Source: a virus. Taken from it: 64,000 nt of DNA. The notes under the pieces were generated by a model, which worked only from the letters and a program-made list of their open reading frames with translations, was not told the origin of the DNA and ran no database searches. This document shows positions 34,182 to 58,560 of the stretch, piece after piece. The position numbers and the translations under genes are program-made. Positions within the stretch are counted from its first letter, which is position 1. Every line of letters starts with the position of its first letter. The stretch is taken from the IMG/VR virus record IMGVR_UViG_3300047489_000453, positions 1 through 64,000 of that record, one strand, 5' to 3'.

Positions 34182-35444
34182 CTATATTTTACATATACCT
34201 GGTTGGTGCTGTCCTTTCAAAGCACATAGGTCTGCGTAAACATACAAAATGTTGTGAGCCCTATGAAATTCCGATGGATGAGAAGTCCAAACTCTTACAT
34301 CCTGGAACCTACACTCTATCTCAGGCACAAACTTTGAGTAGTTCCTGTCTGTATAGTACCAGAAAGAGTTTTGATTGATAAAGTTAATATGTGTTGGATC
34401 TTGGTAAGCTCCTCTGCCGTCAGAACTTGGAGTCCCAGAAAGTATCCAACCACCAGGGGCTAGTACCCTATAAAAGTCATTCATGCACTGGACAAATTTT
34501 TCTCTTGGAAGATGCTCAAAGAAATCAAACGCCCTTAATATACCGACGGAATTATCGTCAAACGGTAGAGGAGATTCTCCTACTCTGTGAATAATCTCAG
34601 CGTTTCTAATATCCAGGCTTTTGTACTGCTTTGGAGAATTAAAGCCTCCTCCAAGGTCTATCATTAAAAGCTTTTCTCTTCGGCTCCATTCTTCGCACAT
34701 TCTATGTAAGAATCTATTGAAGGTATTGTTTTGAGTCTTGGCTATTAGTTCTCTCTTTTTAACAAACGAGTTGCTCTTTTTGGGGTCTAATATCCTTCGG
34801 TACAAGTATAGGCACTCTGGGTGATGCACAAACTTGCACCCGGCCAAATAAGTACGGCATACAAGATCATGATCATCTCCAACTTCCAAAGTAGCATCAT
34901 GCCCGCCTGCAGCGTAATAGACATCTCTGTGCCAGGCCCTTACGTGGTTAGGCGCGTACCATATCTCGCCCAGAGCCCTAGGAGTAGCAGCGAATGCCCT
35001 GTGAGCGGCGTATTTCTTGTCGTCTAAAGTAAAGTCATAAGTCTTCCAGCCATGCTGGTGATTGTAAAGCTCTGGAGACCCGTTTGGAAAAAAGCTAGCA
35101 AAGTCAGAATAATGAAAGGCTGGTCCTATCTCTTGATGCTTGTCGTAGATCTTTTCCAGGGCTGTAGGCACCAGCATATCATCATGGTCTAGCTCTACAT
35201 AAATGTCACCGGTTGCTTGGTTACATGCATAGTTTTTTAGATAACCTATTTTATCGCTAGATACCGGTCTGATTAAAACCCTAGGGTCGTTAACTATTTC
35301 AGCCGGCATCTGGAGGCTTTCCGCCCCGTTTGGGACTATTACCCACTCCCAGTCTTTATAGGTTTGTTTTAATAAGCTTTTATATGTTTCAAGAATCCAA
35401 GTTGGGTCATTTGTTGGCGTGAATACGCTAAACTTTATCGACAT
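34182..35444 (-). CDS. GT2 glycosyltransferase fused to a class I SAM-dependent methyltransferase
   Basis: GT2: FSVFTPT, SLLKQTYKDWEWVIV, ELDHDD, GDDHDL. MTase: IDLGGG, LPFDDNSV, FFEHL, YRVLAPGG, QDPTH. Confidence 0.85.
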   Translation of the reverse strand: MSIKFSVFTPTNDPTWILETYKSLLKQTYKDWEWVIVPNGAESLQMPAEIVNDPRVLIRPVSSDKIGYLKNYACNQATGDIYVELDHDDMLVPTALEKIYDKHQEIGPAFHYSDFASFFPNGSPELYNHQHGWKTYDFTLDDKKYAAHRAFAATPRALGEIWYAPNHVRAWHRDVYYAAGGHDATLEVGDDHDLVCRTYLAGCKFVHHPECLYLYRRILDPKKSNSFVKKRELIAKTQNNTFNRFLHRMCEEWSRREKLLMIDLGGGFNSPKQYKSLDIRNAEIIHRVGESPLPFDDNSVGILRAFDFFEHLPREKFVQCMNDFYRVLAPGGWILSGTPSSDGRGAYQDPTHINFINQNSFWYYTDRNYSKFVPEIECRFQDVRVWTSHPSEFHRAHNILYVYADLCALKGQHQPGICKI

Positions 35445-36363: not shown

Positions 36364-37293
36364 TTACGCAAAGTCAGCTCTAGCGATTGCGTTGGTGTTA
36401 CCAATTGCACCGCCGAGGGTTTCATAGGCGAAAAATTCGAGCATATACGCCTTACGATCGATATAAAGCGTGGTATCCTCTAAAATGAAACTTTTGCCTA
36501 CAAATTTAGGGTCAGCGAACATAAAGATGCTGTCCGTAGGAACCAAATCCTGCTTGATGGAGATAATCCAACGAGCATTCATGAAGTTCTGTTCGGTCCA
36601 ACCGTTCTTGAATACGTCCTGGCTGAAGTCACCGCCCATTTCTTCACGACCGAATTTCATCAGTTCGCGAATAGTAAGGTTGTTGATCAAGCAGGTGCCT
36701 ACTTCAAGGCGGCTGATGGTGCGAGGCAGAATCTTGAAAGCATCTTGAAGGGTATCACGAGTGATACCGCCGTAGATGGTTTCCCACTGTACCAAACCGG
36801 ACTGGGATACAGTAGTGTTAGCTGCGCTGCCCATAGCTGCGTTGCAAGCGGCGATGAACTTGCGATCTTCTTCCGCTAACATGTCCTTTATGGCGTTATC
36901 AGACAGGATCTGCCTGATGTCCATACGATAAGTGCGAAGTTCATCAACGTCCTTCGTGAATCGTGGGGTCACGATTCGGTCAAAGGTAACGCGATACTTC
37001 TGGCCACGAACATAGAGGTTCATAGGCAGAGTAGCGAAGGGAATGGAGATAGCAGCTGGGCTATCAGGTTCCCTTTCGATGATCTTAACAGGCTTATCGG
37101 TATCTACCTGTTGATCGAGATCGTCGTTGCTTACCTGGATTGGAGGAAGAATTCGTCGATAGAATCCTTCTTCACGCATCCTGTACCTGGTGTAGTCGAC
37201 CACTGCGTCGAGTGCTCGCTTTTCCATTCCAGGGGTTTCAAGGTAGCTGAGGAATGTTTCGTTCATCAGCTTAGTGTCGTTGTCGTAAGACAT
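36364..37293 (-). CDS. Major capsid protein (HK97-type fold)
   Basis: 309 aa; follows protease, scaffold and decoration genes; RMREEGFYRRILPP, IKDMLAEEDRKFIAAC and FFAYETLGGAIGN resemble large-phage capsid proteins; strong RBS. Confidence 0.75.
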   Translation of the reverse strand: MSYDNDTKLMNETFLSYLETPGMEKRALDAVVDYTRYRMREEGFYRRILPPIQVSNDDLDQQVDTDKPVKIIEREPDSPAAISIPFATLPMNLYVRGQKYRVTFDRIVTPRFTKDVDELRTYRMDIRQILSDNAIKDMLAEEDRKFIAACNAAMGSAANTTVSQSGLVQWETIYGGITRDTLQDAFKILPRTISRLEVGTCLINNLTIRELMKFGREEMGGDFSQDVFKNGWTEQNFMNARWIISIKQDLVPTDSIFMFADPKFVGKSFILEDTTLYIDRKAYMLEFFAYETLGGAIGNTNAIARADFA

Positions 37294-44799: not shown

Positions 44800-47178
44800 T
44801 TAGTCTGCTTCCAAGCTGATGCCTTCATCAGGATAGGCATCGATAGTTTTTTGTTTTAAGAACAACATAAGGTCGCCTAGCTGCTCAAATGAATTTCTTA
44901 GGCTGTCTTCTAGCTCTGGAAGGTCTTTCTTTCCGTATCTGTCTTCAAACTTGTCTTTATGCCAGTAGAAACTAAACAGTATACGGCCTATTTTATCAAG
45001 ACCTTTCATAAGATCGCCAAGATGATTATCTACCATCGAATCGTCTCTTACAGACTTTACTAAAGATCCGATCATAGAGGTATCAAATACATCTTTCTGG
45101 CCTGCTGTGGCCGCGTTGTATCCGATAGCCATAGTCTTAGGATCAGGAATTTTAGGGTCATACACCGCCGAGTTAGCCTGTAAAGACTGGCTGGACATGG
45201 CTGGAAGAGCTTGCTGCAGAGGATAAGTTGACTTAACGCTGCCAAGCAAGGTCTGCTCCATGCCAGTAGGTTCTACTGGGAATGCCGGGGAAGCGGTTCC
45301 GCCGATCATACTAGGATCGATATTGTCACCCGGCGCTGCTGACTTAATAAGGTCACCAGCATCCTCTTTGATCGGTTTATGTACTCTGTATTCGGCTACT
45401 TTATTAGCCTTAGCTTCGTCCAAAATAATCCTGGCTTGTTTTTCTGTTAACGATACGTCTCTGACTAGGTGAATTAGAGCGCTTTGAGGATCTAATACCC
45501 TGCCGTTAACGTTTACTTCTGACCCAGTATGTCTGACGTTCAAGGACGCTGTTTTTTGATAAATAGCGTGCTGAAGGTCTGTGAGACTTCCTGGAGTTAT
45601 AGAGCCGTTGCCGCAGCAATCATCGTCGTTAAGTTTAATTACCTTAAAATTACCTGGAATATAGAGTTCGCCCTTTATAGCTTTAATTCTTACTCCGGGC
45701 TTATCGGTAACGTAAAGCTTTTTGCCGCCGCCAATAACGCTAAGGTTATCCATATTAAAGTCGCCGTAGGACCCTTTTCGAATCACATGCGGCAAATAGC
45801 TAGGTTTTGACTGAGAAGCCCAGTCATAATACTTAACTCTAAAATTGTTTGTTCCGTCAGAGTTTCCTTCGACTTTTAGAACTTCAAAAGGCACTGAGGC
45901 ATCGCCGCTTTCGCTTACTGCCATGTATACGTTGCCTTTGGTCATAGATTTGATTTCAGACAGGCCTTCAAAGAACTTTTCATAGCTTTGGCCGCTAGTC
46001 TTACTCTCTGGAGCATCTTGCCCCTTATCCCTTGGAGGACGGGTAAAAAGGTTACCTGGGTGACTGTTTATCCAGTTCTTTTCGCCTTCGTAGCTTACAA
46101 CAGTGGCAAATTCCTGTCTGCCTGTTGGGCCGTGCGGCATTAGGAATATTACTGTTTTGAGCATAGAGAAAGGCGAAATAAGAAGATCGTATACGCCAGT
46201 AGTTGGAGGGTTTTCAAGGCTGGTAGGCGCCTGAACTCTATAAGCTATAGCGGTGTCGTCTTTTGTTCTAGCGTCTTGAAAAATTACTCCATCAGTCAAA
46301 AGCTTTTGCTTATCAGCTTCTGGAGAGTCCATTACGCCGTCTGAGGAGGCCGAAAAACTTCTTACTACGATCGTAAGGGCTTTCTTTTCTACATGGCCTA
46401 CAGATGCTGCGCCGTCTAATACGCCTGGGTTCTTAAGTGACTTAAACGTATCTACCGCTTTCTTAAGGAAGTCTTTTCCATAGAACTTATCAATAGCCTC
46501 TGCAATTTTAGGAAACTGCTGGCATGTTTCGATAAGGGCGGTTACCGCTTTTTTATAGCCTTCTTTGCCTCTATTAGCCTCTTTCTTAAAGAAAGAATCT
46601 AAAGTAGTAAGGTTTTTATACTTGGCGTCGTGTTCAGGGTTAGAGCAGGCGTGTTTTGCAAGCTGCCTAAGGCCTTCTCTCATTTCTTTTAAATCGTCAT
46701 TAACAGACGCAAACTTGGCCGGAGGACGGCTAAATGCCTGGAGATCTGGGGAAAGAAATCCAAGTCGAGCCATATTCTGATCGGTTTTCTTGCCTAGGCT
46801 GGCTGGTTTTCTTCGCAGAATATAATTGAGCCAGTTTTCTTTGAGGGGGACAAACTGATCTTGGTCTTTAAGATATAAAAGCTCATGGCCTTTAAGGTCA
46901 CCATTAGAAAAGAAGACAGGAGCATACAGCCACTGTGATCCTACCTTAAACCCAAATATGCCTACAGCCTTGGTGTTATCTTCGTTTCTTTCGAGAAGTT
47001 CAAATCCAACTTCGTAATCTAAAAGGCCTGGCGCTTTATCTTTTAGATAAGCGTGAGCCAGATTGCTAAACGATTGTTCAAATTGCGTATCATTACCTAA
47101 ATCACTTCCGCCCGCTTTTTTTACGAATCCATTAATTGGAGGAAGCTCTACTAAAAACTTATCAGTGTTCTGGCTCAT
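44800..47178 (-). CDS. Large putative virion head protein with K-x-A motifs
   Basis: 792 aa; VKKAG, AKFAS, AKHA, KKEA, EKKA, QKTAS, IKSAA. Confidence 0.5.
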   Translation of the reverse strand: MSQNTDKFLVELPPINGFVKKAGGSDLGNDTQFEQSFSNLAHAYLKDKAPGLLDYEVGFELLERNEDNTKAVGIFGFKVGSQWLYAPVFFSNGDLKGHELLYLKDQDQFVPLKENWLNYILRRKPASLGKKTDQNMARLGFLSPDLQAFSRPPAKFASVNDDLKEMREGLRQLAKHACSNPEHDAKYKNLTTLDSFFKKEANRGKEGYKKAVTALIETCQQFPKIAEAIDKFYGKDFLKKAVDTFKSLKNPGVLDGAASVGHVEKKALTIVVRSFSASSDGVMDSPEADKQKLLTDGVIFQDARTKDDTAIAYRVQAPTSLENPPTTGVYDLLISPFSMLKTVIFLMPHGPTGRQEFATVVSYEGEKNWINSHPGNLFTRPPRDKGQDAPESKTSGQSYEKFFEGLSEIKSMTKGNVYMAVSESGDASVPFEVLKVEGNSDGTNNFRVKYYDWASQSKPSYLPHVIRKGSYGDFNMDNLSVIGGGKKLYVTDKPGVRIKAIKGELYIPGNFKVIKLNDDDCCGNGSITPGSLTDLQHAIYQKTASLNVRHTGSEVNVNGRVLDPQSALIHLVRDVSLTEKQARIILDEAKANKVAEYRVHKPIKEDAGDLIKSAAPGDNIDPSMIGGTASPAFPVEPTGMEQTLLGSVKSTYPLQQALPAMSSQSLQANSAVYDPKIPDPKTMAIGYNAATAGQKDVFDTSMIGSLVKSVRDDSMVDNHLGDLMKGLDKIGRILFSFYWHKDKFEDRYGKKDLPELEDSLRNSFEQLGDLMLFLKQKTIDAYPDEGISLEAD

Positions 47179-47217
47179 ATTCGCAACCTTCCGTGGTTTG
47201 GAAAATGTTATAGAGCT

Positions 47218-47246
47218 ATTATGCTCTTAATTTTTCAATTGCGCAA
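47218..47246 (-). promoter_or_regulatory. Candidate sigma70-type promoter TTGCGC-N17-CATAAT
   Basis: Exact 17-bp spacing in the intergenic region upstream of 47178; the -10 lies within a small inverted repeat AGAGC-ATAATA-GCTCT. Confidence 0.35.
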
Positions 47247-47260
47247 CGATTACGGCGACT

Positions 47261-47680
47261 TTAAGAGTCATAATCCGTAATATTTACATTTAGCAGGCTT
47301 CTAGCCGCTACTCCGCTCTTTATAAAATTTAGGAAGTTTTGAAGATTCCTAATTTCAGCCATCTTAGCATAATTAGTTTGTGAATTAATAGTGGAGACAT
47401 CTCCACGATTAATTTGTTGTACAGGAGAAGGAGGCTGAATGACTGGCTGGGGATTATTAGATTGGGTCGTCACTATAGGCTGACTCTGTACTCTAGGCTG
47501 TATATTAGGGCTAGTATCTACTGACTTTACAGCCACTTCAGAAGGCGGCTTACCCTTAGTGGCCTCGTTTACTTGCAAAGGTTTTAGTGTTTCTTTTTCT
47601 GTTTTAGACTGGGACCCTTCAAGTTTTAAAGACTTGTCGGCCTGCTTCCAGGTAGCCCACTTTTCTAAAAAGGTTTGCAT
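47261..47680 (-). CDS. Low-complexity hypothetical protein with K-x-A motifs
   Basis: TAATG-coupled to the RNAP beta'-C gene; EKWA, WKQA, AKMA. Confidence 0.55.
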   Translation of the reverse strand: MQTFLEKWATWKQADKSLKLEGSQSKTEKETLKPLQVNEATKGKPPSEVAVKSVDTSPNIQPRVQSQPIVTTQSNNPQPVIQPPSPVQQINRGDVSTINSQTNYAKMAEIRNLQNFLNFIKSGVAARSLLNVNITDYDS

Positions 47681-49590
47681 TATAGTACGCCCTTGCTCTG
47701 TTCAGGCACTTTGCCAAGCTCATTAACGTCAAATCCTTTTACCTTACCTTTACGACCAAAATCAACAGCTTTTGCCAATGATGGCACATATGATGTGCCA
47801 GCTTCGTCGCTTATGGCGCCTCTATGCACAGCTTGTAAGGTAGATTTTCTTAGATTGCTCCCCAGCATTCTAGTCATCCAGTCAGGGTCATGCTGAAGAT
47901 TTTCTAGACCTCTGACAAAATGGGGCTCAAACGGTGGAGGTTCTTTGTGGACTGTAATATCTTTTATGCCAAATTTTTCAAACTCTCTAACCATAGACGG
48001 CCTTATAGGCGTGCCTATCGTATAGTGAAGAACAGGTTTTTCCAAATAGCTTCCTACTCCTTGATTAGGCTTAACCGTTCTACTGTCTTGTCTAGGCTCC
48101 CATACGCTTTCAACTGAGTCATAAGGTATGACGTCGTCAGGGTTAAACTGATTATATTCGTCATTCATGATGACATGGTTGATAAGGCCTTTGGACATTA
48201 CCTCTATATTTCTGCGATGGCCGTACATGCCGGCCTCTTTCATTGCAGTCCTAAAAGAATTAACGAATTGGCGACGGCCCTCGCCTATTCCCCTAAACTT
48301 AGTAAATTGAGCAGGGTTGGGAATACCAGAGGATATGACATCTCCGGCTTCTACAGTATCGCCTACCTTTACTGAAGCGGAAGCCTCAGGGCTGACGTAA
48401 TGTTCTACGCCGTCTATAGTTACAAATACACCACCAGTAGGCGCAGGTTTAATATTTGATACTCTACCGTCCTTTTGTGCATGAGTAGCCCAGAATGGAG
48501 ACTGCTTAGGGATTTGCACTAATTGATTGAGGTGCCTAAAACCAGACACAGACGCGGACGCTCCTGCGATACCGCCAGTGTGTTTAGAGTTTAGCTGCCC
48601 TTGAGAAATGGGCTCTGATAAAGCCTGCATAGCAGCAATTCCAACAGCATCTCCTATAGGTGCAAGACCTGATCTTTCTCTAATTCCTAGGTCCCTTGCA
48701 TATAGCCCTCCACCGGCAGCTCCCGACGCTATTGGGCTCCTGATGACTATTCTGTCTATGTTCTTTGATTTTAAATCTTTAAGAACTCTAGGCGTGAGCA
48801 CAGTGTTTCTTCCGTAACCTCCGGCAGGCATTCCTAATAGTGCGCCTTCGTTTTCCTCGTCATCCGTGTCTACCGGCATCCCCCTGTTCTCTATTGATTT
48901 AGGGTCGTCAGCATCTTCGCCAGTAACTATCATCCTGTGGCCGATTTGATTTAATTGCTTGGAAAAGAAGCCTGCGTCCATAACTGAGAACTTGGTATCT
49001 GTGATACCTTTTCGTGTACCAAAGCTCCCTGCGAAGTATTCAGACGGAGTTAGTCCTTTTGAATAAGAGTTAAATACTGGTATTGGTATTTCTCTATCGT
49101 GATGATCGGTATATAAAATGTCGCCGCCTCTAAGGCTTTTGAGGTTTTTAGGCTTACCTCTGGACCCGGACTGAATTTGCCTAGCTAACTGATTTCCTTC
49201 AGCGCTAGCTTCATCAAATATACCTTTTTCTAGATCTTTTTGAGAATTAGCTAAGATAGCTACAATTTGTTTATTCTTATCGTCATCAGTGAGCTGTCTA
49301 TTTGAAATAATTGAGTCTATAGCTGCTTTAAGTTTTAGTTTTCTGTCGTGATAAAATTTTGATTCCCTAAGATCGCTAAGACCAAAAGAGAAGCCACCAG
49401 AGTTATATGACACGTCTCTACCGACGTCCATAAGCCCTTTGGCTATCTGTCTGTATTTGTCTGGGTGATTTTCTGCTACCGTCTGAAGAATACCTTGAAC
49501 TGCTTTGGTATCTAGAACTCTAGAGTAGTCCTTAAGCTCGTCAGGAAGCGCGTCATTAACCATGATTTGACCTATAGTGGTCTTTAACAT
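47680..49590 (-). CDS. Phage multisubunit RNA polymerase, beta' C-terminal half (bridge helix, trigger loop)
   Basis: TTIGQIMVN, QSGSRGK, bridge helix GLTPSEYF...GTRKGITDT...AGFFSKQL, trigger loop GDAVGIAAMQALSEPISQGQLNSKHTGG. Confidence 0.92.
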   Translation of the reverse strand: MLKTTIGQIMVNDALPDELKDYSRVLDTKAVQGILQTVAENHPDKYRQIAKGLMDVGRDVSYNSGGFSFGLSDLRESKFYHDRKLKLKAAIDSIISNRQLTDDDKNKQIVAILANSQKDLEKGIFDEASAEGNQLARQIQSGSRGKPKNLKSLRGGDILYTDHHDREIPIPVFNSYSKGLTPSEYFAGSFGTRKGITDTKFSVMDAGFFSKQLNQIGHRMIVTGEDADDPKSIENRGMPVDTDDEENEGALLGMPAGGYGRNTVLTPRVLKDLKSKNIDRIVIRSPIASGAAGGGLYARDLGIRERSGLAPIGDAVGIAAMQALSEPISQGQLNSKHTGGIAGASASVSGFRHLNQLVQIPKQSPFWATHAQKDGRVSNIKPAPTGGVFVTIDGVEHYVSPEASASVKVGDTVEAGDVISSGIPNPAQFTKFRGIGEGRRQFVNSFRTAMKEAGMYGHRRNIEVMSKGLINHVIMNDEYNQFNPDDVIPYDSVESVWEPRQDSRTVKPNQGVGSYLEKPVLHYTIGTPIRPSMVREFEKFGIKDITVHKEPPPFEPHFVRGLENLQHDPDWMTRMLGSNLRKSTLQAVHRGAISDEAGTSYVPSLAKAVDFGRKGKVKGFDVNELGKVPEQSKGVL

Positions 49591-49599
49591 GGTACTCTC

Positions 49600-49812
49600 C
49601 TATAAATTAATCTTCCTGATAACTGGTTTATCCAGCCCGTGATCTTCTAGAACTTTTAAAAAATCATCATCGCCTGCAGTGGCGCAGACGATGATGTTTT
49701 TATCATTCTCAATAAAAACAGCTATAGGATTATTCATATTGTCGTAAACCACCAGCCTGGTAGCGGGCGACAGCCTATGATTTAAAAGATTATTATGATA
49801 ATCCAATAACAT
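49600..49812 (-). CDS. Small hypothetical protein
   Basis: 70 aa, TAATG-coupled, directly upstream of the beta'-C gene. Confidence 0.55.
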   Translation of the reverse strand: MLLDYHNNLLNHRLSPATRLVVYDNMNNPIAVFIENDKNIIVCATAGDDDFLKVLEDHGLDKPVIRKINL

Positions 49813-50456
49813 TATTTTTTCTTTCTAAGCAAGTACATCATTCCAGCGGCTTTCTCAGCTACAGAGATTTTAGCCGACTTAATTGGAGAGGTGTCTTGCG
49901 AAGAAGCGCTCGTAGCATCTTCACCATCTTTAGCTGGCGACGATACGTCATCTAGAATGTCATGAGGAAGGTTAAGCCCTAACGATGAATACAGGTGTGT
50001 CAAAAGCTTCTGTATTCTATGCATGTACAGCTCAACTTGCCCATTATCGTTTTTCTTTGAGGCTTTACCGGTGCCTTTGGCCCCGGCTAAAGCTTTTTGA
50101 AGCTCTTCCTGTACCACAGTTCTAATTTGCTCAGTAGGATCAGCTGGAGGGGATGCTCCGGCCGCAGCTGGATCCATAGGAGGCGCTCCGCCCATCATAG
50201 CTGGGTCCATAGGAGGCGCTCCGCCCATCATGGAGGGGTCCATAGGAGGTGCGCCGCCTGGAGGCATGCCGCCCATCATGGAGGGGTCCATAGGGGCTCC
50301 ACCTGGAGGCATGCCCCCCATCATAGATGGATCCATAGGAGGCGCTCCGCCCGGAGGCATACCGCCCATAGCTGCTGGGTCGCCGCCTTGGGTAGGAACA
50401 AAAGCACTTTTAATGCTATTTTTTGCTGATTGAAGCAGGAATCTATTAACTGCCAT
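49812..50456 (-). CDS. Met/Gly/Pro-repeat protein with K-x-A motifs
   Basis: GGMPPGGAPPMDPSMM-type repeats; IKSA twice, EKAA. Confidence 0.65.
   Translation of the reverse strand: MAVNRFLLQSAKNSIKSAFVPTQGGDPAAMGGMPPGGAPPMDPSMMGGMPPGGAPMDPSMMGGMPPGGAPPMDPSMMGGAPPMDPAMMGGAPPMDPAAAGASPPADPTEQIRTVVQEELQKALAGAKGTGKASKKNDNGQVELYMHRIQKLLTHLYSSLGLNLPHDILDDVSSPAKDGEDATSASSQDTSPIKSAKISVAEKAAGMMYLLRKKK
50170..50370 (-). repeat. Coding tandem repeat (about 5 imperfect units of (GGMPP)GGAPPMDPxMM)
   Basis: Recurring CCATAGGAGGCGCTCCGCCCATCAT units on the + strand. Confidence 0.85.
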
Positions 50457-50500
50457 TGTATTTTATCTCCGTTTTAAGCCCCAGTATATGCATCGCGTGT

Positions 50501-51397
50501 TTATATTTTTCCAGAATCGTCAGTATGCATTTTGTCGAATAGTATTGGGCTATCTCCAATATTATCAGAAGTATGACTAAAGTCAGGTTGCACAAGTTGT
50601 TTATATGGATCGTGCAATCCAGTAGAACCTGGAAACTTACCAGTATAAGGATTAGGCCTTACAGGTATAAGAGGAGCAGAGTTTTTAGCTGCTTCTCTTT
50701 CTGCTAACATTTTGCCTAAAATAGAGCTTAAACTTCCAGCTCCTGCACCTATTACACCGCCGCCCAGCGCGCCTGTTGCAAATCTGTTTAACATCCCTTT
50801 TCTTTTGCTGCCTAAAGCTAAGTTTCCTACGCCGCCTACACCGGCTCCAATTAGAGAACCCATAATAGCTTTTTGAACTCTTGGGTCTAATTGTCCATAA
50901 GCCGACATAATATCAGATACCGCAGCACTTTTATTAAAGGCTCTGAGAACATGATTAGCGTTATTAAAGCCTGATTCTTTTATGCTCATTTCTTCAACTC
51001 CTAAAGTATCTGCGCTTCCGCATTTCCATTTTCTTAAAGACTTGTTAATCCTGCTGTCCGGGTCATTAGCCGTCTCAGATGAAGTAAGTTTTGACTTCAT
51101 GCCTTTCATTCTGGCGCAGAAGCTATCTTTGCGCGCCCCGCCTTCCGGCTGAGGCCTCTTTATATCATGCCCTTGCGCCTTTAAGCTAGCCCTGCCTTTT
51201 TCGTTTAATCCGCCTTCTGGATTCTTACCTTCGGCTTTTTGCCAGGCGGCTGTGCCTTTTTTCTCTGATATTGATGTTACTTTCTTCCAGTTTTTTGCAT
51301 CTGGATAGTCTTTATCGCCTGGCTTGGCTGGAGCCTCGCCTCTCTCTTTTTTAGCGTGAATATTAGCCCACAACCCCGGCTTAGACTTATCTGCCAT
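50501..51397 (-). CDS. Mosaic protein: small basic phage modules (DUF6321-like) plus a glycine zipper
   Basis: AAWQKAEGKNPEGGLNEKGRAS...SFCARMKGMK...DPDSRINKSLRKWKC, then NKSAA and GSLIGAGVGGVG / GALGGGVIGAGAG. Confidence 0.65.
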   Translation of the reverse strand: MADKSKPGLWANIHAKKERGEAPAKPGDKDYPDAKNWKKVTSISEKKGTAAWQKAEGKNPEGGLNEKGRASLKAQGHDIKRPQPEGGARKDSFCARMKGMKSKLTSSETANDPDSRINKSLRKWKCGSADTLGVEEMSIKESGFNNANHVLRAFNKSAAVSDIMSAYGQLDPRVQKAIMGSLIGAGVGGVGNLALGSKRKGMLNRFATGALGGGVIGAGAGSLSSILGKMLAEREAAKNSAPLIPVRPNPYTGKFPGSTGLHDPYKQLVQPDFSHTSDNIGDSPILFDKMHTDDSGKI

Positions 51398-51415
51398 TTT
51401 TAACTCCTTTTAAAA

Positions 51416-51510
51416 CCAGTTAAAAGCCTTCATCTACTCTGTCGCACTTCCGCTTCGAGTGATGATTAGTCCCAGGAAAGTGCTAAAACGGGCCCTAGGC
51501 TTTCAACTGG
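51416..51510 (-). ncRNA. Candidate structured RNA: 14-bp outer stem, 13/14-nt internal bubble, 8-bp inner stem
   Basis: CCAGTTGAAAGCCT pairs with AGGCTTTTAACTGG and GCACTTTC pairs with GGAAGTGC; both mismatches are G-U pairs only on the minus strand. Confidence 0.4.
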
Positions 51511-51521
51511 ATCTATAGATA

Positions 51522-53009
51522 CTAACGCTTAGAGCCTATCTCTTTAAGCAAATTCAAGAACTTTTCATTAAGTTCTTGCTTCTTTTGTGCTGCTGCCATC
51601 AAGTATTCGTCAGTGGCAGGATCGCCTTCAGGTTTAAACCCTATTAGTCCTAGCAGCGATTTTAGCCTACTTGGAGCCGTTCTCGCCAGATATCTTTCTA
51701 TTTTTACTTTTCTCTCTTCAGGTGGAAGGTGCTCATGGCTGTCAAACCTTAAAGCTCTTCCTTCGCTTTGCGACCCTCTGCTGGTATTCCAGTGCGGGTC
51801 CAGTAGCTGCACTAGCTTTGTGCCTTTAAACGATAGCCCCTCTGTTCCGGCTGGGCCTAGCAGAGCCACCTTTAACTTATCAGCATTAAAATCATCTACT
51901 AGTTTTTTCCTTTCCTTGTCGCTTAACGCCCCTGTAAAGGAGGCGGCAGGTATACCAGCTTTATTTAATGCAGCCAGGTAAGGAGACAAGCCGGCGTCAA
52001 CAAAATTAGAAAATACTAACGCCTTGCCTCTTGGGTCTGTCTTAAGAAGGGTATTAAGCCTATTAAACGCCTCGTTTAGTTTTGGAGACTCTTTGAACGC
52101 CTTCATAGGGTCGGCATTATCTTTCATAAATGGAAGAGTGGATAAGCCTACTTGTCTTGGTCCTGTTAAAAAGCTTACTAACTTTTTTGACTCCTCATCT
52201 GTGAGAGGGTAGTTAAGTTGTAGCTTCCATTTAAGAAGAGTCGGCAGCTTTCCAAACAATTGATTATATAAATCTGTCTGGTCTCTGCTCATCTCTACTA
52301 TTACGTCTTCTCTGTTAATGTCAGCTCTTGGTTTTAAAGGAGCAAAGTAATCTACCTTACCTTTTAATGATTTTTTTAGCTCTTCCACGTTTTTTAATTC
52401 TGGGTCGTGGGCTTTTACATTTAGAAGCAGCTTATACCATGGGGCCTTTTCTGGTTTGCTTACGTACCTTTCAGAGAAGGCCTCAGGCGTCATTTCGCTA
52501 TCGGTAAGTACGTTATAAGGTACGGCAAAGTCGGCTGGGCTATTAACTATGGGGGTTCCAGTAAGAAGAACAGCTTGTCTAGCCTTCCTTGCTGCCTCTA
52601 AGAGATTCTTAGTCTGGGCTGACTCCATATTTCTAAATCTATGAGCCTCGTCTACTAATAAAGATTCGGGATGCTCTATAGGCTTGCCCATAGCCAGTCC
52701 CGTATGGCTCATTATTGATGACGGGGTAGCAGTTGCAGGATCTATAAATTTTTCCTGCTCTTTTTTAAGATTAGTTCTAAGAGCTGCCGGCACTATGGCC
52801 GTGTAAGGAATTTTAGTAGCATCAGCGGCCGCCAGACCGCTTAAAGTCTTGCCCGACCCAAGACTATGATAGAGCAGCATTCTAGCTCTATCTTTTTTAT
52901 CTATCTGTTCTTGAACCTTGTCTACAACGGCCTGCTGATGCGGCTGTAGATTTACGCCTTGAGCTAAGTCGGCCTGCTTACAAATTGTGGAGACGTCGAC
53001 ACTACTCAC
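51522..53009 (-). CDS. SNF2-family (SF2) helicase/ATPase
   Basis: LQPHQ, HSLGSGKT, VDEAH, LLTGTP, ALVFSNF, GTEGLSF, QSEGRALR; coupled (GTGA) to the RNAP fusion gene. Confidence 0.92.
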   Translation of the reverse strand: MSSVDVSTICKQADLAQGVNLQPHQQAVVDKVQEQIDKKDRARMLLYHSLGSGKTLSGLAAADATKIPYTAIVPAALRTNLKKEQEKFIDPATATPSSIMSHTGLAMGKPIEHPESLLVDEAHRFRNMESAQTKNLLEAARKARQAVLLTGTPIVNSPADFAVPYNVLTDSEMTPEAFSERYVSKPEKAPWYKLLLNVKAHDPELKNVEELKKSLKGKVDYFAPLKPRADINREDVIVEMSRDQTDLYNQLFGKLPTLLKWKLQLNYPLTDEESKKLVSFLTGPRQVGLSTLPFMKDNADPMKAFKESPKLNEAFNRLNTLLKTDPRGKALVFSNFVDAGLSPYLAALNKAGIPAASFTGALSDKERKKLVDDFNADKLKVALLGPAGTEGLSFKGTKLVQLLDPHWNTSRGSQSEGRALRFDSHEHLPPEERKVKIERYLARTAPSRLKSLLGLIGFKPEGDPATDEYLMAAAQKKQELNEKFLNLLKEIGSKR

Positions 53010-56000
53010 TTTCCTGTCTCCATTATCACGACTCTATCGTTAATATCTATGTCGCCAGATCTGTAAGCTCTTATAGCGTCAGCTTTGGTCTTAAAGTATT
53101 TCTCTGGTCTTTTTGAAGGAGCAGCGGATGCAGCGTATAGCCCGCCCTGATACTCGTTAGCTGGAAGCTGATGAACTTTAAATGACTTAGCTGCCATAAG
53201 GTTACGACTTGGCAACATCTTTTCCATCGCGTCTTTTACAGCCTCGTCCGTGCTTGGAACGTGATAGTTCATGGCATCGCCATCAAAGTCGGCATTAAAA
53301 CCTTTTACTATTATTGGAGACACCTGTAGCGTGCTACCTTTTACCAGCTTAGGCTTAAACGCCATTACACCATATCTGTGAAGAATAGGCGCCCTTGTCA
53401 CTATTACGGGCCTTGCGTCCATCTCGGCAACCATGGCGTCTCTGGCCATGTTGTCTTTCTTATCAATCATGTCGGCAGCTTTAAACCTATCAACGCCTCT
53501 ACGAATAAGACGCCTCATTATAAACGGTTTATATACTGACCAGGCTCTATCCTCTGGAAGGCCTACTTCGTCCATGTCCAGATCAGGGTTAGGAGTAATT
53601 GCCGCCCTTCCTACCATATCAACTTGAGAGCCTAAAAGTTTTCTTTGAACAACGCCAAACTTAGGATTATCTCCGAATACTTGCTTTAATATTCCTTTTA
53701 CGTTTTTCTTTTCAAGCTTTGGATTAACAGAATCTCCAAGGCCAGTTATAGCCTTAAATGAGTCATAAAGAGCTAGTCTGTGTTGAGACAAGTCAGAAAA
53801 TGACTTTGAAGCTTCTCTGAACTCATTATTAACGTCGATAAGTTCCTTGTATAGGTAGTTAGCATCTCCGACCATCGGTAGACCGTTGTTAGACATTATA
53901 CTTACAGGTCTAAACACTGGAGGCAAAACGGGTACTTTTGTAAGCATCCATTCTGATGGGTGTATCTTAAGGTTCTTAGCGCTCTTAAGATAACTAAGCT
54001 TTCTTACAGCGTCGTCCCTGTACGACTTTTTACCGGACGCAATTATAGCTCTGGCTTTGGCTATTTCTTGATCCACGTTCATGGATTTGAGCGCATTAGC
54101 TATGGCTGAGGGCCCAGAGGCACCTCCAAGCTGCTCTTTTCCAGCTAGTACGTCTCTAAATTTATTCTCAGTTAGACCTAGAACTCTTCTTATAGGGTCT
54201 TCCATAACAGGGTTAGGCATTGCCTCGTGAAGCTTTATATGGCTCCACATGTTGCCGCCATGCCCGCCTGTAAGAGATACGTCAAATAGACCGCCACCAG
54301 CAGGCTCAAGACCTTTGCCCCAGTCTACTGTATCTGATTTTTTGATTTCCCTATTTCCTGACAGGGAATCTATATCCTTGTCAGTAAGGGCCATAAGTTG
54401 TGTCTTAGTTCCACTTCTTACAGGGTTTATTCCAGACGCCTGGAGCTGAGCCATGAACTTTCTGTAAGTCAGTGGGACTCTAGGTATTGGAAGAGGTCCG
54501 CCTGTCATAAAGGACGCCCAGTAATCTTCGTTCTTCTGGCCCCTTATAGCGCCGGCATCCCTAAGTACTTCGTGAGCGCCGTGTGACAATAAAGCGTTAA
54601 CGTCCATTAATGATACGCGCTTGCTTCCTTCTTCACCGCCCTTGGCCGGAGTCTCTTCAGAGGTATATCCGCCGCTGCCTATACCTCTACCCTGGCCTTT
54701 AGACTCCGAGGTATGGTGTAGCTTTAAAAAGAACCTGTTTCCTGTGAATATGCCTTTTATTTTTCTTCCAGTCTCCGGGTCTTCAATATCTTCCTTGTCG
54801 CTCATGTTATTTTTTTTAAGTTCATTAAGAGCAAACTCGGTAAGATCCTGGATGTTTTCAAAATCTTTTACCGCGTACCTTTTTCCAGTCTTTGCAGCTA
54901 TCTTTCCTAGAGCAGCCTCAATCATCTGACTTGGGTTTGTTCTAGATATAACGCCAAGGGGATTAAGAAGAATGTCAAAAGGATTGCCCTCTGAATCTCT
55001 AGGCATTTTTGAATCTGGAATAACGGCGGATATAACTCCCTTATCGCCATATCTACCTGACAGCTTGTCGCCTTCTTTTGAACTGCTAAGGCTTTTTACA
55101 GTTACTGATACTCCCTTATTTGTCTTGGTAACATCTGTAACTACGCCATCGTTTTCGTGGTCCCAGGTAATAGATGCATTACTAAACCCAGTCTTTGACC
55201 TGCCTATCTGTTGATTGTGTGACCTTGAAAGAATTTTGGCCTGTAAAAATAAAGGGTCTCCCTTTCTTACTACAGTGCCTGGCTTTATGGCGCCGTCATC
55301 GTCCAGAGAGTCAACTACCTGTCTAGAATAGTCTGAAGGAAATAATGTTAGAAATCCTCTTTTGCCTTCTTTAGTTTCCTTGCCAAATTCAGCTTGGTGC
55401 TGATACATGTGCTCTGACGTTAATTTTTTAGCGGCGCTTTCAGATATAACTACAGCGTCTTCAAAGTTATAGCCTTTATAAGGAATGTAGGCGGTTCTAA
55501 GATTAATGCCCAGAGCAGCTGTACCTTTTTCATCGGTATAGTTTGACCTTGCTAACAGCCCGCCTTTTTTTACCATATCGCCAACTTTTACAGTTGGAGT
55601 GTTGTGTAAAAAGGTTTTTCTATTAAAAGGTAAATTGTTGTATATCTCTTGCTTGTAAAGCTTTCCGTCTGTTCCTCTAATTCTAACCTCGTCGTTGTCG
55701 GCATAAATTACTTGGCCATCAACATCAGAGTAGGCTGCGCCCATATGCTTGCCGTATTCCTCTTCATATGATTTATCCTCTTCGCCAAGCTTACCGGACT
55801 GCACAAGTGGGGCCTCTGGATTTTTCAGAGGCAGAGCCTGGGTAAGCATTCTTGAACCCATCACTACTCTTTGGCCAAATGTAGCGCTCTTAAGCGGAAC
55901 CATGTTGGCAAGGTGATTAAAGGCGCTGTCCATTCTAGGCAGTTCGAAGTCAACATCTTGTCTATCAACATATTTAATCTTACCGCCGGCCATAGCGGCT

Positions 56001-57457
56001 ACTTTAGTCTTTGATTTATCTATGAGCTGGTTTGGAAACGCTATTACTGACTGGGCCATCTCTTGCGGAGTTTTCCAAACTTCATCACCTGTTCTTACAT
56101 CTCTAAACTTAGAATAAACTTTTCCGTCTACGCCTTTGCGGGCGTTTGTAGCTATTCTGCTATCAATACCCACCTTAAGTGACTCTGGCGTAAGCAGAGG
56201 ATCTATGTAGCCAAAGTGAGATGGCTGAACGTTTCTAGCTTCTTCTGGAACAGCTTGCAAGGAAGGAATGCCGCCTTCGCCGAGACGACTTACTCTGGTG
56301 ATTTGATTTAATAAATCAGCTGGATTTACTTCTTCAAGAGGCTGGCCCAAGCCGCTTTTCATAATAGCGGAATTAACCTGTGAAGATAAAAATCCAGGAG
56401 CAAATGGCGATAAGTTTTGTTTAAAGCTGGCCTTCCACAGCAGAGGGCGCATAACTTTATAAGCAGCCCTAATTCTTTCAGTAAATAAATCTTCAGGGCC
56501 ATACAGATTCTGATAGGCCATGGCGTCTCTGTCGTCTGGATCTGCCTCTTTTCTATGCACAGCTAATATTCTTTTTGTGGCTGCCAACACTGAATCAACT
56601 GACAAGTTAGAGAAGCCTTTACCTAAAGTTGCAGCCGTAACTTCTGGATCAAGCTCCATTTTTGTCATGGCAGCTGCTACGGCTTTAGCTTTACTTTCTT
56701 CGGTCATGGCCTCGCCAGGCTGTAGTCTTCCTATCTTTTTGAAGATCTTGTCTAGGTATTGAGGATCATTTTTAACTGCGTTTGAAGCGTATATCTCATT
56801 TCCCCACGCTTCCCTAATCTGCTTATCGCTAGCGCCCATAGCTTTAAGAACTGGCATAAGAGGCACATTAGACTGGCCAAATGAAATATTAAACACGCCC
56901 TTTTCTGGGCTTAAAGAGTATCTATGAGATAGCCCCTTGCCAGGCATTACGTTTACGTGGCTTTCAACGTCGCCGCTATTTGTTATTCTTGTAAATACAC
57001 CCGGCCTTAGCCTCATCTGGTTAGCCAAGGTATACTCAGTGCCGTTTACTATATAAGTTCCTCTATCTGTTAGGTAGGGAATCTTAGCTATAGTTGTCCT
57101 CTTGCTTTCAAGCACCTTGCCCGTACTATTATCGATTAGATTTATTGTACCTTTGAGGCCGCGACTGAGAGTTTCGCCTTTTAATATGGCTTCTTTTTGA
57201 GTCTTTATAGGCTTTACCTCTTCAGGGTCGCCCCAGCCTACATCTGTAATTGATAGAGTGTGTCTCTGGTTACTGAGAGGCTGTAACGACGAGGCTGCTG
57301 TCTGAACTCCGTTAAATATTGCAGCTCTAGTAGCCTTTATGTCATCAAACCCTCTCATGGAAGGGGCTTGCATAGAAGGAACTAAGCCGACCATTTTATT
57401 GGCCGGCTTAGGAATGAGGCCGCTGCTATCTGGCTGATCGGGAAGTACGCCGGCCAT
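53006..57457 (-). CDS. Phage multisubunit RNA polymerase: beta subunit fused to the beta' N-terminal (catalytic) half
   Basis: Beta motifs GTYIVNGTE, SRLGEGG, GYNFEDA, GDKLSGRYGDKGVIS, LKLHH; junction after LQASGINP near 54420; beta' motifs PVLPPVFRP, LLGSQVD, RAPILHR, and NADFDGD at 53276-53296. Confidence 0.95.
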   Translation of the reverse strand: MAGVLPDQPDSSGLIPKPANKMVGLVPSMQAPSMRGFDDIKATRAAIFNGVQTAASSLQPLSNQRHTLSITDVGWGDPEEVKPIKTQKEAILKGETLSRGLKGTINLIDNSTGKVLESKRTTIAKIPYLTDRGTYIVNGTEYTLANQMRLRPGVFTRITNSGDVESHVNVMPGKGLSHRYSLSPEKGVFNISFGQSNVPLMPVLKAMGASDKQIREAWGNEIYASNAVKNDPQYLDKIFKKIGRLQPGEAMTEESKAKAVAAAMTKMELDPEVTAATLGKGFSNLSVDSVLAATKRILAVHRKEADPDDRDAMAYQNLYGPEDLFTERIRAAYKVMRPLLWKASFKQNLSPFAPGFLSSQVNSAIMKSGLGQPLEEVNPADLLNQITRVSRLGEGGIPSLQAVPEEARNVQPSHFGYIDPLLTPESLKVGIDSRIATNARKGVDGKVYSKFRDVRTGDEVWKTPQEMAQSVIAFPNQLIDKSKTKVAAMAGGKIKYVDRQDVDFELPRMDSAFNHLANMVPLKSATFGQRVVMGSRMLTQALPLKNPEAPLVQSGKLGEEDKSYEEEYGKHMGAAYSDVDGQVIYADNDEVRIRGTDGKLYKQEIYNNLPFNRKTFLHNTPTVKVGDMVKKGGLLARSNYTDEKGTAALGINLRTAYIPYKGYNFEDAVVISESAAKKLTSEHMYQHQAEFGKETKEGKRGFLTLFPSDYSRQVVDSLDDDGAIKPGTVVRKGDPLFLQAKILSRSHNQQIGRSKTGFSNASITWDHENDGVVTDVTKTNKGVSVTVKSLSSSKEGDKLSGRYGDKGVISAVIPDSKMPRDSEGNPFDILLNPLGVISRTNPSQMIEAALGKIAAKTGKRYAVKDFENIQDLTEFALNELKKNNMSDKEDIEDPETGRKIKGIFTGNRFFLKLHHTSESKGQGRGIGSGGYTSEETPAKGGEEGSKRVSLMDVNALLSHGAHEVLRDAGAIRGQKNEDYWASFMTGGPLPIPRVPLTYRKFMAQLQASGINPVRSGTKTQLMALTDKDIDSLSGNREIKKSDTVDWGKGLEPAGGGLFDVSLTGGHGGNMWSHIKLHEAMPNPVMEDPIRRVLGLTENKFRDVLAGKEQLGGASGPSAIANALKSMNVDQEIAKARAIIASGKKSYRDDAVRKLSYLKSAKNLKIHPSEWMLTKVPVLPPVFRPVSIMSNNGLPMVGDANYLYKELIDVNNEFREASKSFSDLSQHRLALYDSFKAITGLGDSVNPKLEKKNVKGILKQVFGDNPKFGVVQRKLLGSQVDMVGRAAITPNPDLDMDEVGLPEDRAWSVYKPFIMRRLIRRGVDRFKAADMIDKKDNMARDAMVAEMDARPVIVTRAPILHRYGVMAFKPKLVKGSTLQVSPIIVKGFNADFDGDAMNYHVPSTDEAVKDAMEKMLPSRNLMAAKSFKVHQLPANEYQGGLYAASAAPSKRPEKYFKTKADAIRAYRSGDIDINDRVVIMETGK

Positions 57458-57459
57458 GC

Positions 57460-58560
57460 TTATCTCCCTAGATGTGCGATAGGATTATTATTTTCTTGTT
57501 TTTTAGCACTAGGAATAGGCGTAGGAGTGACGTAAATAGGAGACCCTTGCTCCTGCTGCCTTTGCAGAAACTCAGCTAAATACCTATTAGATTCGTACGG
57601 CTCTGTATCTTCTGCTTTAGCTCTTCTTAGACCATGGTATGTGCCTATTCCACCACCAATGAGCCCTAATGCCCCAGTCAAGCCTAAAGCGGCTCTTCCT
57701 TGTTGAGTACCTAGAAGAAAGTTATTAGTTCTGCCAGCTACGTCCATAAGAGCCTTAATCCCTTTAGACAGGCCTGTGCTAGCTAGGTCCCATGGCGACA
57801 TTCCATTTCTCGCTATATCATCTATTTCTTGCTGGCTCTTTCCGGCTAGGCCGAGCCGCCCAGCCCACCGTTCAAGCGTAGGAGCGCCTGCTAAAGGGTC
57901 ATTAGACACATCTACGACCCCTTTACCGCCAGCAGCTTTCTCTATGTACAATTCTGATAGTTCGTCTAAATCATTAATTATCTCTTCAGAGACGGAAGCA
58001 GCTTTTGCTCGAACGGCCTCAACTGGATTATTTAACTTACTGGCACTAGTCTCCACTAGAGTCTTATTAAACGCCTCTCTAGCTATGTCTTGGTCATCTT
58101 GTACGTCTTTTTTTCGTTTATTTTTTAAAAGTTGGCTTAAGGTCAAGTAGCTAAGTAGTCCTGGTCCGCCCATAGCAGTGACGACGCCAGGTAAAAAATA
58201 TGGATTAGTAAGATTCTTCCAGTCGTATAAGTTAGAGACTGGAGCAGATGCAGTGTCTCCTGCCTTCTTTTCATTTTTAGGTTTAACTTCGTAGTCTTCC
58301 CCTGGACTAAAGTCTCTTAATTTATCAGATCTTTTGTCTGGTTTTCTCCCCATTTCTTTGGAAAGGTCGACTCCTTCTGGCTCAGAATCCATTCCAACAA
58401 CAGGAAGATACGCAGAATACCCTAAAGATTCCGGTAAAACAGCTGGGGTGGACCCGCGCAGTAAATGCTTAATAGCAGGTATACTAGACCCTACTCCAAG
58501 AGATATAAGGCCAAGCTTTTTAAGATAATCCCACTGCTGCGGCGTATACATGTCAGACAT
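57460..58560 (-). CDS. Membrane/glycine-zipper protein (putative ejection protein)
   Basis: Hydrophobic Gly-rich helices separated by EKKAG, AKAAS, EKAAG; no Cys. Confidence 0.55.
   Translation of the reverse strand: MSDMYTPQQWDYLKKLGLISLGVGSSIPAIKHLLRGSTPAVLPESLGYSAYLPVVGMDSEPEGVDLSKEMGRKPDKRSDKLRDFSPGEDYEVKPKNEKKAGDTASAPVSNLYDWKNLTNPYFLPGVVTAMGGPGLLSYLTLSQLLKNKRKKDVQDDQDIAREAFNKTLVETSASKLNNPVEAVRAKAASVSEEIINDLDELSELYIEKAAGGKGVVDVSNDPLAGAPTLERWAGRLGLAGKSQQEIDDIARNGMSPWDLASTGLSKGIKALMDVAGRTNNFLLGTQQGRAALGLTGALGLIGGGIGTYHGLRRAKAEDTEPYESNRYLAEFLQRQQEQGSPIYVTPTPIPSAKKQENNNPIAHLGR

Follow-up and report, generated by a model that had tools for sequence, protein, structure and literature searches.

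A phage RNA polymerase whose unsplit β subunit continues in frame into the N-terminal half of β′

Organization of the polymerase genes

The DNA analysed here, referred to as the window, comprises the first 64 kb of the 136,787-nucleotide (nt) IMG/VR virus record IMGVR_UViG_3300047489_000453 (G000), which has no terminal repeats and is estimated to be 67% complete. It belongs to a phage genome of roughly 200 kb, and its minus strand carries nearly all of its genes. Two genes of the window encode the RNA polymerase that is the subject of this report (Table 1). The first, P0001, is a β subunit fused through a short linker to the N-terminal half of β′ (β′N); the second, P0002, is the separately encoded C-terminal half (β′C). 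The gap between them measures 3415 nt and contains four open reading frames (ORFs).

The domain layout of P0001 was taken from Pfam, with Rpb2_2, Rpb2_3 and Rpb2_6 at residues 194–928 and Rpb1_1 and Rpb1_2 at residues 1161–1412. The match to Rpb2_6, at residues 610–928, scored 185.4 bits against a cut-off of 23.4 and shows that the β catalytic barrel region is present; the match to Rpb1_2 (87.4 bits, cut-off 25.3) shows the same for the β′ catalytic loop region. Rpb2_3 scored 29 bits, above its cut-off, and the matches to Rpb1_1 and Rpb2_2 were below theirs. The motif NADFDGD occupies residues 1388–1394 (nt 53276–53296), and the chain ends 89 residues further on. When compared with solved structures, residues 50–1037 align to bacterial β, nearly reaching the β C-terminus, and residues 1083–1479 align to residues 143–562 of β′, or to residues 186–555 of the 624-residue cyanobacterial γ subunit. 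The E-values of the fused chain are 6e-72 against bacterial β and 7.5e-48 against β′, and a chance explanation of the polymerase matches is excluded at such values. The C-terminal motif of β ends at residue 1012, corresponding to nt 54422, and a conserved block that matches β′ residues 24–50 of the solved bacterial enzymes begins at about residue 1021, so that the tether is about 8 residues long. Both double-psi barrels, which form the active centre, thus sit on the single polypeptide P0001.

The N-terminus of P0002 reads MLKTTIGQ. The β′ C-terminal module Rpb1_5 is present (64.9 bits, cut-off 28.5), and the chain aligns to residues 663–1182 of Mycobacterium tuberculosis β′, with an E-value of 1.9e-30 against bacterial β′. 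The NCBIfam rpoC profile is covered from position 157 to 534 by the first chain and from 548 to 1049 by the second, and the Helicobacter fused model from 1573 to 1943 and from 1946 to 2310, respectively. On these profiles the two chains are collinear, with no segment lost or doubled at the cut, and the loop that is cut is a variable one on the surface. Against the rpoC1 profile of cyanobacteria, P0001 ends at position 552 of 619, which places the cut about 67 positions ahead of the cyanobacterial one; it also lies far ahead of the archaeal A′/A″ cut. Most β′C proteins of the clade bear a C-terminal extension (of more than 200 residues in 104/150, with a median of 481) that P0002 lacks; in the window a 139-residue ORF (47261–47680) follows the β′C gene in place of the extension.

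An earlier note on this DNA had described β as reading in frame into β′ near nt 54420 with both barrels on one chain, the cut in β′ as lying just before TTxG and earlier than the cyanobacterial split, and the second half as encoded about 3.4 kb downstream after four other genes. The Pfam matches, the structure alignments and the open frame bear out the fusion, its position was exact, and the profile and gap measurements agree with the account of the cut and of the second gene.

Table 1 Features of the polymerase locus and associated genes in the window
Feature	Coordinates	Strand	Basis
Fusion gene P0001, β + 8-residue linker + β′N, 1483 residues	53006..57457	−	Open frame, Pfam, structure alignments
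β moiety, residues 1–1012, end motif ...SGINP	54422..57457	−	Rpb2_6, alignment to bacterial β
Linker VRSGTKTQ, residues 1013–1020	54398..54421	−	End of β motif to start of β′ block
β′ N-terminal half, residues 1021–1483, without the N-terminal zinc ribbon	53009..54397	−	Rpb1_2, rpoC profile
β′ C-terminal half P0002, 636 residues, with bridge helix, trigger loop and C-terminal clamp	47680..49590	−	Rpb1_5, rpoC profile
SNF2/SF2 helicase, 495 residues	51522..53009	−	Pfam Helicase_C, ResIII, SNF2-rel_dom
298-residue protein, N-terminal DUF6321 module	50501..51397	−	Pfam DUF6321, 61 bits
214-residue protein, Pro/Met/Gly-rich repeats	49812..50456	−	Alignment of the family
70-residue protein, just upstream of the β′C gene	49600..49812	−	ORF; kept in loci L003, L004, L007 and L013
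Sigma-70-family protein, 354 residues	14680..15744	−	Sigma70_r3; in baseplate gene block

Distribution and conservation

Homologues of the region around the junction were sought in a word-indexed protein search with residues 900–1483 of P0001, in which 7999 candidates were scored. The search returned 2417 proteins at E ≤ 1e-10, a count that includes cellular β′. All of the best 120 near-length homologues consist of β and β′N and end no more than 12 residues from a common point. For P0002 the search was exhaustive and yielded 3899 representatives at E ≤ 0.001, of which 1031 also passed E ≤ 1e-30. None of the best 150 of these contains β or β′N; 149 start within 30 residues of the same N-terminus, and the remaining one is truncated. 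The contigs of fused relatives are up to 234 kb in length.

The gene arrangement was then compared at the level of nucleotide loci. The junction lies inside a single open frame in 80/80 IMG/VR loci, ten of which have the frame broken farther upstream, near residues 619, 800–836 or 945. A β′C gene is present downstream on the same strand in 72 of these 80 loci, at a distance of 889–4238 nt, and starts at query residue 1–2. In a further 80 loci from metagenomes, the frame is open for at least 60 codons into β in 75 and is cut by the contig end in five, with a stop in none; the β′C gene is found downstream in 61. All 14 IMG/VR loci found with P0002 show the fusion gene followed by the β′C gene on one strand. 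Because the two sets of loci overlap in contigs (L031 is identical to L117), they do not represent 160 independent phages.

Cultured phages also carry the pair. In Salmonella phage Arash (OQ632216) it consists of Gp206 (1525 residues) and Gp216 (606 residues), and in Vibrio phage D69 of genes 0261 (1527 residues) and 0264 (609 residues); the chain ends of both pairs are the same as those of P0001 and P0002. Vibrio phages D148 and D181 have the same fusion and split together with a homing-endonuclease insertion.

The polymerase genes of some relatives are interrupted in other places. In-frame insertions of about 330–790 residues were observed in loci L006 (540–6059), L015 (14–3556 and 5537–12283) and L014 (8201–12814), at sites corresponding to P0001 residues 399 and ∼916–919 and to P0002 residues ∼196–210 and ∼325–334. 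Database homologues of 1800–2200 residues bear the LAGLIDADG domain PF14528. The insertions are probably inteins. In L016 (341–7161), as well as in L083, L084, L087, L089 and L090, the fusion gene is split at residue 945 with an ORF of 637 codons between the pieces. The upstream piece of this type has about 100 additional C-terminal residues, and about 33 database proteins of 578–589 residues share a conserved N-terminal extension of about 38–46 residues ahead of residue 945; the break looks like a split intein. At ∼7000–7400 of L055, near the β GRYGDKG motif, an intein-like segment is followed by a one-base change of frame. A start at P0001 residue 818 is shared by 17 cluster representatives of 662–669 residues, which may represent either a genuine further split of β in one subclade or a recurrent effect of gene calling. 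Some records of phage collections (the unannotated 'Staphylococcus phage SA 1306 Kay' and 'Listeria phage LM 4-11-1', and Salmonella enterica contigs) match P0001 in three to four pieces at 26–27% identity, as ordinary bacterial rpoB–rpoC would, and are probably bacterial DNA.

Integrity of the locus

Twenty sequencing runs from 14 studies each contain half or more of the words sampled from the stretch, and all are of freshwater, lake or aquatic metagenomes apart from one crustacean metagenome. Contigs of four runs from four studies, none of them marked as a possible source of the record, were compared with the window across nt 47000–58000. The junction (nt 54398–54424) is bridged by record 6 of run X12, record 13 of X14, record 30 of X19 and records 21–23 of X16, and the stop of the fusion gene (nt 53006) by record 6 of X12, record 20 of X16 and record 29 of X19. 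No inserted or deleted letters were found in the contigs of the four runs across this interval. The earlier note had asked for coverage across nt 54420 and nt 53006, where an assembly artefact would have shown itself; both positions are bridged by independent runs. The β–β′N fusion and the separate β′C are confirmed and are not an artefact.

That the layout nevertheless reflects an error of assembly or annotation, a pseudogene or a gene whose product is rejoined by protein splicing is extremely improbable. Five database proteins of 459–464 residues begin exactly at the junction, as an unfused β′N would. These are outweighed by the independent contigs that span the junction and by the 155 of 160 loci that are open across it, with no stop in the remaining five. 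Nor do the five short proteins form a lineage, as the nearest relative of each is a different fused protein. An unfused lineage was considered and rejected: one of the five shares a 90% cluster with a fused form of 1821 residues, and two scans seeded with one short protein gave only loci that are open across the junction. We take the five as effects of gene calling or fragmentation. Splicing across the β′ cut was likewise rejected, as the extra segments that it would require are absent from both ends. There are no intein halves at the cut; the first chain ends 0–17 codons past the homologous region in the loci and within 12 residues of a common point in the 120 proteins, and the second chain starts at residue 1–5.

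Cysteine content and zinc sites

The two polymerase chains contain no cysteine in 2119 residues, compared with 1.2% in the phage proteome (P ∼ 6e-12), and the median cysteine count among 102 fused relatives is 0. Ten of the 65 proteins of at least 250 residues are without cysteine; this set includes both polymerase chains, the sigma-like protein, the product of the ORF at 57460–58560 just upstream of the fusion gene and a giant protein of 1520 residues (18631–23193). Outside the window, five consecutive proteins of at least 250 residues at positions 81780–89797 of the full record have no cysteine. In bacterial β′ two zinc ions are bound via cysteines, and with no cysteine in either chain both of these sites are gone. 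At the N-terminal site, P0001 has about 31 residues where Escherichia coli β′ has about 99.

Other polymerase components

Profile searches for the α and ω subunits were performed on five records (G000, two IMG/VR genomes rated 100% and 94% complete, Arash and D69) at E ≤ 1. RNA_pol_A_bac, RNA_pol_L and Rpb6 each matched in 0/5 records, and controls were positive in 14/14 genomes. The remark in the earlier note that no α or ω gene is recognizable in the window can thus be extended, at the level of Pfam, to the whole record and four relatives. Copy number was checked in five full records (three rated 100% complete, together with Arash and D69), each of which has exactly one Rpb2_6 locus and exactly one Rpb1_2 locus. 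No second polymerase set was found in them, and G000 is without a paralogue.

The gene of the sigma-70-family protein is located amid genes for the baseplate and tail (Baseplate_J at 12066–13700). Its product scored 38.2 bits against Sigma70_r3 (cut-off 25.3), with region 4 weak, and its residues 78–346 match the SigA chain 7ckq_F over regions 2–4. The protein is homologous to the Arash virion protein Gp10 (E-value 2e-17), and a Sigma70_r3 match was obtained in 5/5 records. It is likely to be the initiation factor of the fused polymerase.

Neighbouring genes

The start of the helicase gene and the fusion-gene stop codon overlap, and the helicase is homologous to Arash Gp217 (E-value 2e-63). 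The helicase was rejected as an obligate neighbour, since it adjoins the polymerase genes only in the subclade of the window and in Arash; in five relatives, a homologue was located elsewhere in the genome in three and was not found in the other two. The gene for the DUF6321 protein contains a strain-variable spot, with loose contig ends at 51021–51232 in runs X12 and X16 and others nearby in X19. The N-terminal module of this protein also occurs upstream of the fusion gene in the relative L010, and numerous unrelated PHROG families have it at their ends.

The 214-residue protein is built of PMDPSMMGG-type repeat units and a helical tail, and gave no Pfam or PHROG match. A member of this Pro/Met/Gly-rich family is present in the gap in 147/147 main-clade loci that show both gene ends, where most gaps measure only 0.9–1.1 kb, and the family forms 72 clusters at 65% identity. 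Its profile gave no match in the Arash or D69 loci. An α-like role for the gap protein was rejected, as the family is one of low-complexity Pro/Met/Gly repeat proteins; a role in packaging or tethering is possible.

The polymerase genes head a block that is collinear with the structural genes of Arash down to the major capsid protein (36364–37293). Within the structural block, a fusion of a glycosyltransferase family 2 domain with a methyltransferase domain is encoded at 34182–35444 on the minus strand.

Proposed mode of action

The reading that we favour, at a probability of about 0.7, is that the two chains make up a sigma-using core free of α that travels in the virion and is delivered along with the DNA, the packaging by itself being only somewhat more likely than not. 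The C-terminus of β and the N-terminus of β′ are neighbours in the bacterial enzyme, engineered and natural β–β′ fusions are active, and E. coli β′ split in this general region reassembles. As the fusion joins adjacent chain ends and the cut falls in a variable loop, the two chains should fold into a normal core, which would use the phage sigma factor. This core would assemble without an α dimer, with the covalent tether taking over part of the scaffolding role of α. Enzyme and sigma would then be packed into the virion and delivered with the DNA, and the phage genes would be transcribed independently of the host polymerase. A more ambitious form is possible, but we hold it as tentative and the less probable version: a widespread group of phages of ∼180–235 kb would carry a minimal bacterial-type machine in the particle, made of the two chains and their own sigma factor and free of α, ω, zinc and cysteine. 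As the sole phage polymerase it would be injected with the DNA and run the whole programme, and the tether between the barrels would replace the α dimer in assembly.

Packaging is suggested by the virion mass spectrometry of Arash. Gp206 is the top protein by spectra there, with 3516 and 100% coverage, followed by Gp4 (1952), Gp229 (1345), the capsid protein Gp226 (1333) and Gp216 (1210); the helicase Gp217 (1148) and the sigma factor Gp10 (467) are also present in the particles (PMC10585845). Taken together with the position of the genes, these counts tilt the balance somewhat towards a virion-carried enzyme. The lack of cysteine shared by the core, the sigma-like protein and the giant protein fits an exit from the particle through the tail, although it is only a hint of this.

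Several points weigh against the favoured reading. Virion packaging is carried over from a relative that is only 24–32% identical. The Arash authors themselves point to a possible carry-over of abundant enzymes into preparations of particles, in which they also identified a primase, reductases and ligases (PMC10585845). The phage itself is known from DNA alone: two runs labelled RNA-Seq were judged to be probably DNA, and there is no RNA run among those that carry the stretch. No promoter motif was found, with 8-mer enrichment in 50 intergenic regions giving T-runs only. The absence of α and ω was established by Pfam profiles only, which would not pick up a scaffold subunit that is highly divergent or has no homology to them, and the record of the window is itself only 67% complete. 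Finally, the fused chain could be cleaved after translation.

Two of these points can be developed into rival explanations. In one, the enzyme is not packaged at all; as with the phiKZ-type non-virion polymerase, it is made after infection and transcribes only middle or late genes, with the host polymerase reading the early ones. The single polymerase set per genome is in keeping with this, as it leaves no second, virion copy of the phiKZ kind, and the clearly non-structural enzymes in the Arash particles, with the carry-over raised by the authors, point the same way. However, the spectra of Gp206 exceed those of the major capsid protein, and Gp216, sigma and the helicase were found alongside it (PMC10585845). 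The polymerase genes of the window also lead the structural block, with which they share a strand, and the core, the sigma-like protein and a giant virion-type protein are all cysteine-free. We therefore regard an unpackaged enzyme as unlikely, although as the strongest competitor. In the other, the fused chain is a precursor that a phage protease cuts near the junction to yield an ordinary separate β and β′N. Phages of the phiKZ type process virion proteins with their head protease, and the sequence of the 8-residue linker is not conserved, but nothing direct speaks for such processing. Moreover, all relatives examined retain the fusion, including those whose gene is broken elsewhere by inteins or splits, and this would be pointless unless the fusion had a role; co-translation or stoichiometry could be that role. 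The precursor explanation is accordingly rated as distinctly improbable, and a virion-packed core with an intact tether remains the favoured reading.

Implications

The subunit boundaries of cellular RNA polymerases have been treated as nearly fixed, and phage enzymes show otherwise. The end-to-end alignment of the present enzyme with bacterial β and β′ makes it a natural test of several questions: whether a tether can stand in place of the α scaffold, whether the zinc sites are dispensable, and whether a sigma-70-type factor works with such a core. These questions are directly testable, since cultured members exist (Arash on Salmonella and D69 on Vibrio). There is also a practical side, in that the genes are misnamed in GenBank, and screens that expect separate β and β′ of normal length would mis-count or mis-align the clade.

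Comparison with known systems

The closest systems are those of Arash, D69, D148 and D181, which have the same fusion, the same cut and the same order on one strand as the window. Residues 1–1524 of Arash Gp206 align in one piece to residues 15–1478 of P0001 at 31.7% identity, and residues 7–593 of Gp216 align to residues 5–602 of P0002 at 23.9% identity. Arash and D69 also resemble the window in having a sigma-like gene and no detectable α or ω; the contents of the gap differ, Arash having nine genes there and D69 two small ones. In the available text of the Arash paper, the two proteins are named β and β′ and the fusion is unremarked (PMC10585845).

The earlier note had held that a described phage lineage with the same layout would reduce its novelty. 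The same layout has indeed been sequenced in isolates and metagenomes, and as these sequences are public and abundant the object itself is not new. In the literature searched, with the contig lists of the mReC paper (PMC7481178) outside the comparison, a published description of the combined fusion and split was not found. The jumbo-phage comparative paper and the 2026 review (PMC13282480), in the portions available, describe only phiKZ-type splits. One literature match for a 'fused rpoB' (PMC1931444) was rejected, as it concerns the in silico joining of plastid rpoB pieces. The mReC clade of Weinheimer and Aylward (2020) is marked by COG0085 and COG0086 matches of at least 800 residues with NADxDGD on a tailed-phage contig and by its place in their tree; P0001 has the length and the motif asked for, and loci L118 and L163 come from a metagenome that the paper names as well (PMC7481178). 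In the available parts of this paper, β and β′ are treated as two subunits and fusion is mentioned only for crAss phages (PMC7481178).

Among cellular enzymes, the full fusion of Helicobacter and Wolbachia (NF007172 and NF011417) shares the in-frame join of β to β′, and its models are the best-scoring NCBIfam models for P0001. There the chain holds the whole of β′, whereas P0001 reaches only model position 1943 of 2890 and a separate gene encodes what remains; the scores of P0001 are far below the full-fusion cut-offs (371.4 against 5372 bits and 297.3 against 4632 bits). The rpoC1/rpoC2 arrangement of cyanobacteria and plastids likewise has a β′ of two genes with the catalytic loop in the first. 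It differs in the later position of its cut, at the end of the γ subunit, in the adjacency of its two genes and in a separate rpoB; here the genes are 3.4 kb apart and the first piece is fused to β, and P0001 scored 165 bits on the rpoC1 profile against a cut-off of 976.

The phage enzymes of phiKZ/AR9 type, together with those of RP13, Ab1-TPeters, IME392 and YerA41, are phage-encoded and without α or ω, as here. The earlier note had regarded the architecture, fusion and split together, as unusual, and in this the comparison divides its claim: the fusion is distinctive, but the β′ cut is not special, lying within about 45 residues of those in RP13, Ab1-TPeters, IME392 and the phiKZ-type enzymes. 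In the phiKZ-type PHROG profiles (2986/2987/3015) the cut is about 35–45 residues earlier, in the same loop. The β′C of Ralstonia phage RP13 starts within two residues of the P0002 start, with five ORFs between the halves; its β′N is free-standing (517 residues), starting at the fusion point and ending about 38 residues before the P0001 end. The β′C of Acinetobacter phage Ab1-TPeters starts about 34 residues earlier and that of Escherichia phage IME392 about 16 residues earlier. YerA41 has its cut 40–90 residues further downstream and the gene order β′N, β′C, β. As the same loop is cut in other phage polymerases, the derived feature is the fusion to an unsplit β: in the phiKZ-type and RP13-like split enzymes β′N stands alone and β is separate or itself split. 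According to the review (PMC13282480), phages of the phiKZ type carry two sets of polymerase genes and lack a sigma-70 homologue, whereas the window has one set and a sigma-70-family gene. The unsplit β and the single set, with the NCBIfam scores given above, uphold the distinction that the earlier note had drawn from the phiKZ-type enzymes and from the full Helicobacter and Wolbachia fusion.

Rhizobium phage RHph_Y65 (Kleczkowskaviridae) has a bacterial-type β′ with 29.6% identity over the catalytic half, present as one unsplit protein of 1127 residues that is not fused to β. The best PHROG matches are families 24349 and 25354. The crAss-like enzyme and the tape-measure-fused enzyme of P23-45 have both barrels on one chain and are virion-carried (PMC10770324, PMC7481178). 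They are too divergent to align with cellular β and β′, whereas the enzyme of the window aligns over its whole length and uses a second chain. What defines the clade is an unsplit β fused to β′N, combined with a factor of sigma-70 type and only one polymerase set. The new feature is the previously undescribed fusion; by uniting a fusion and a split, the enzyme represents a third way of dividing the polymerase core.

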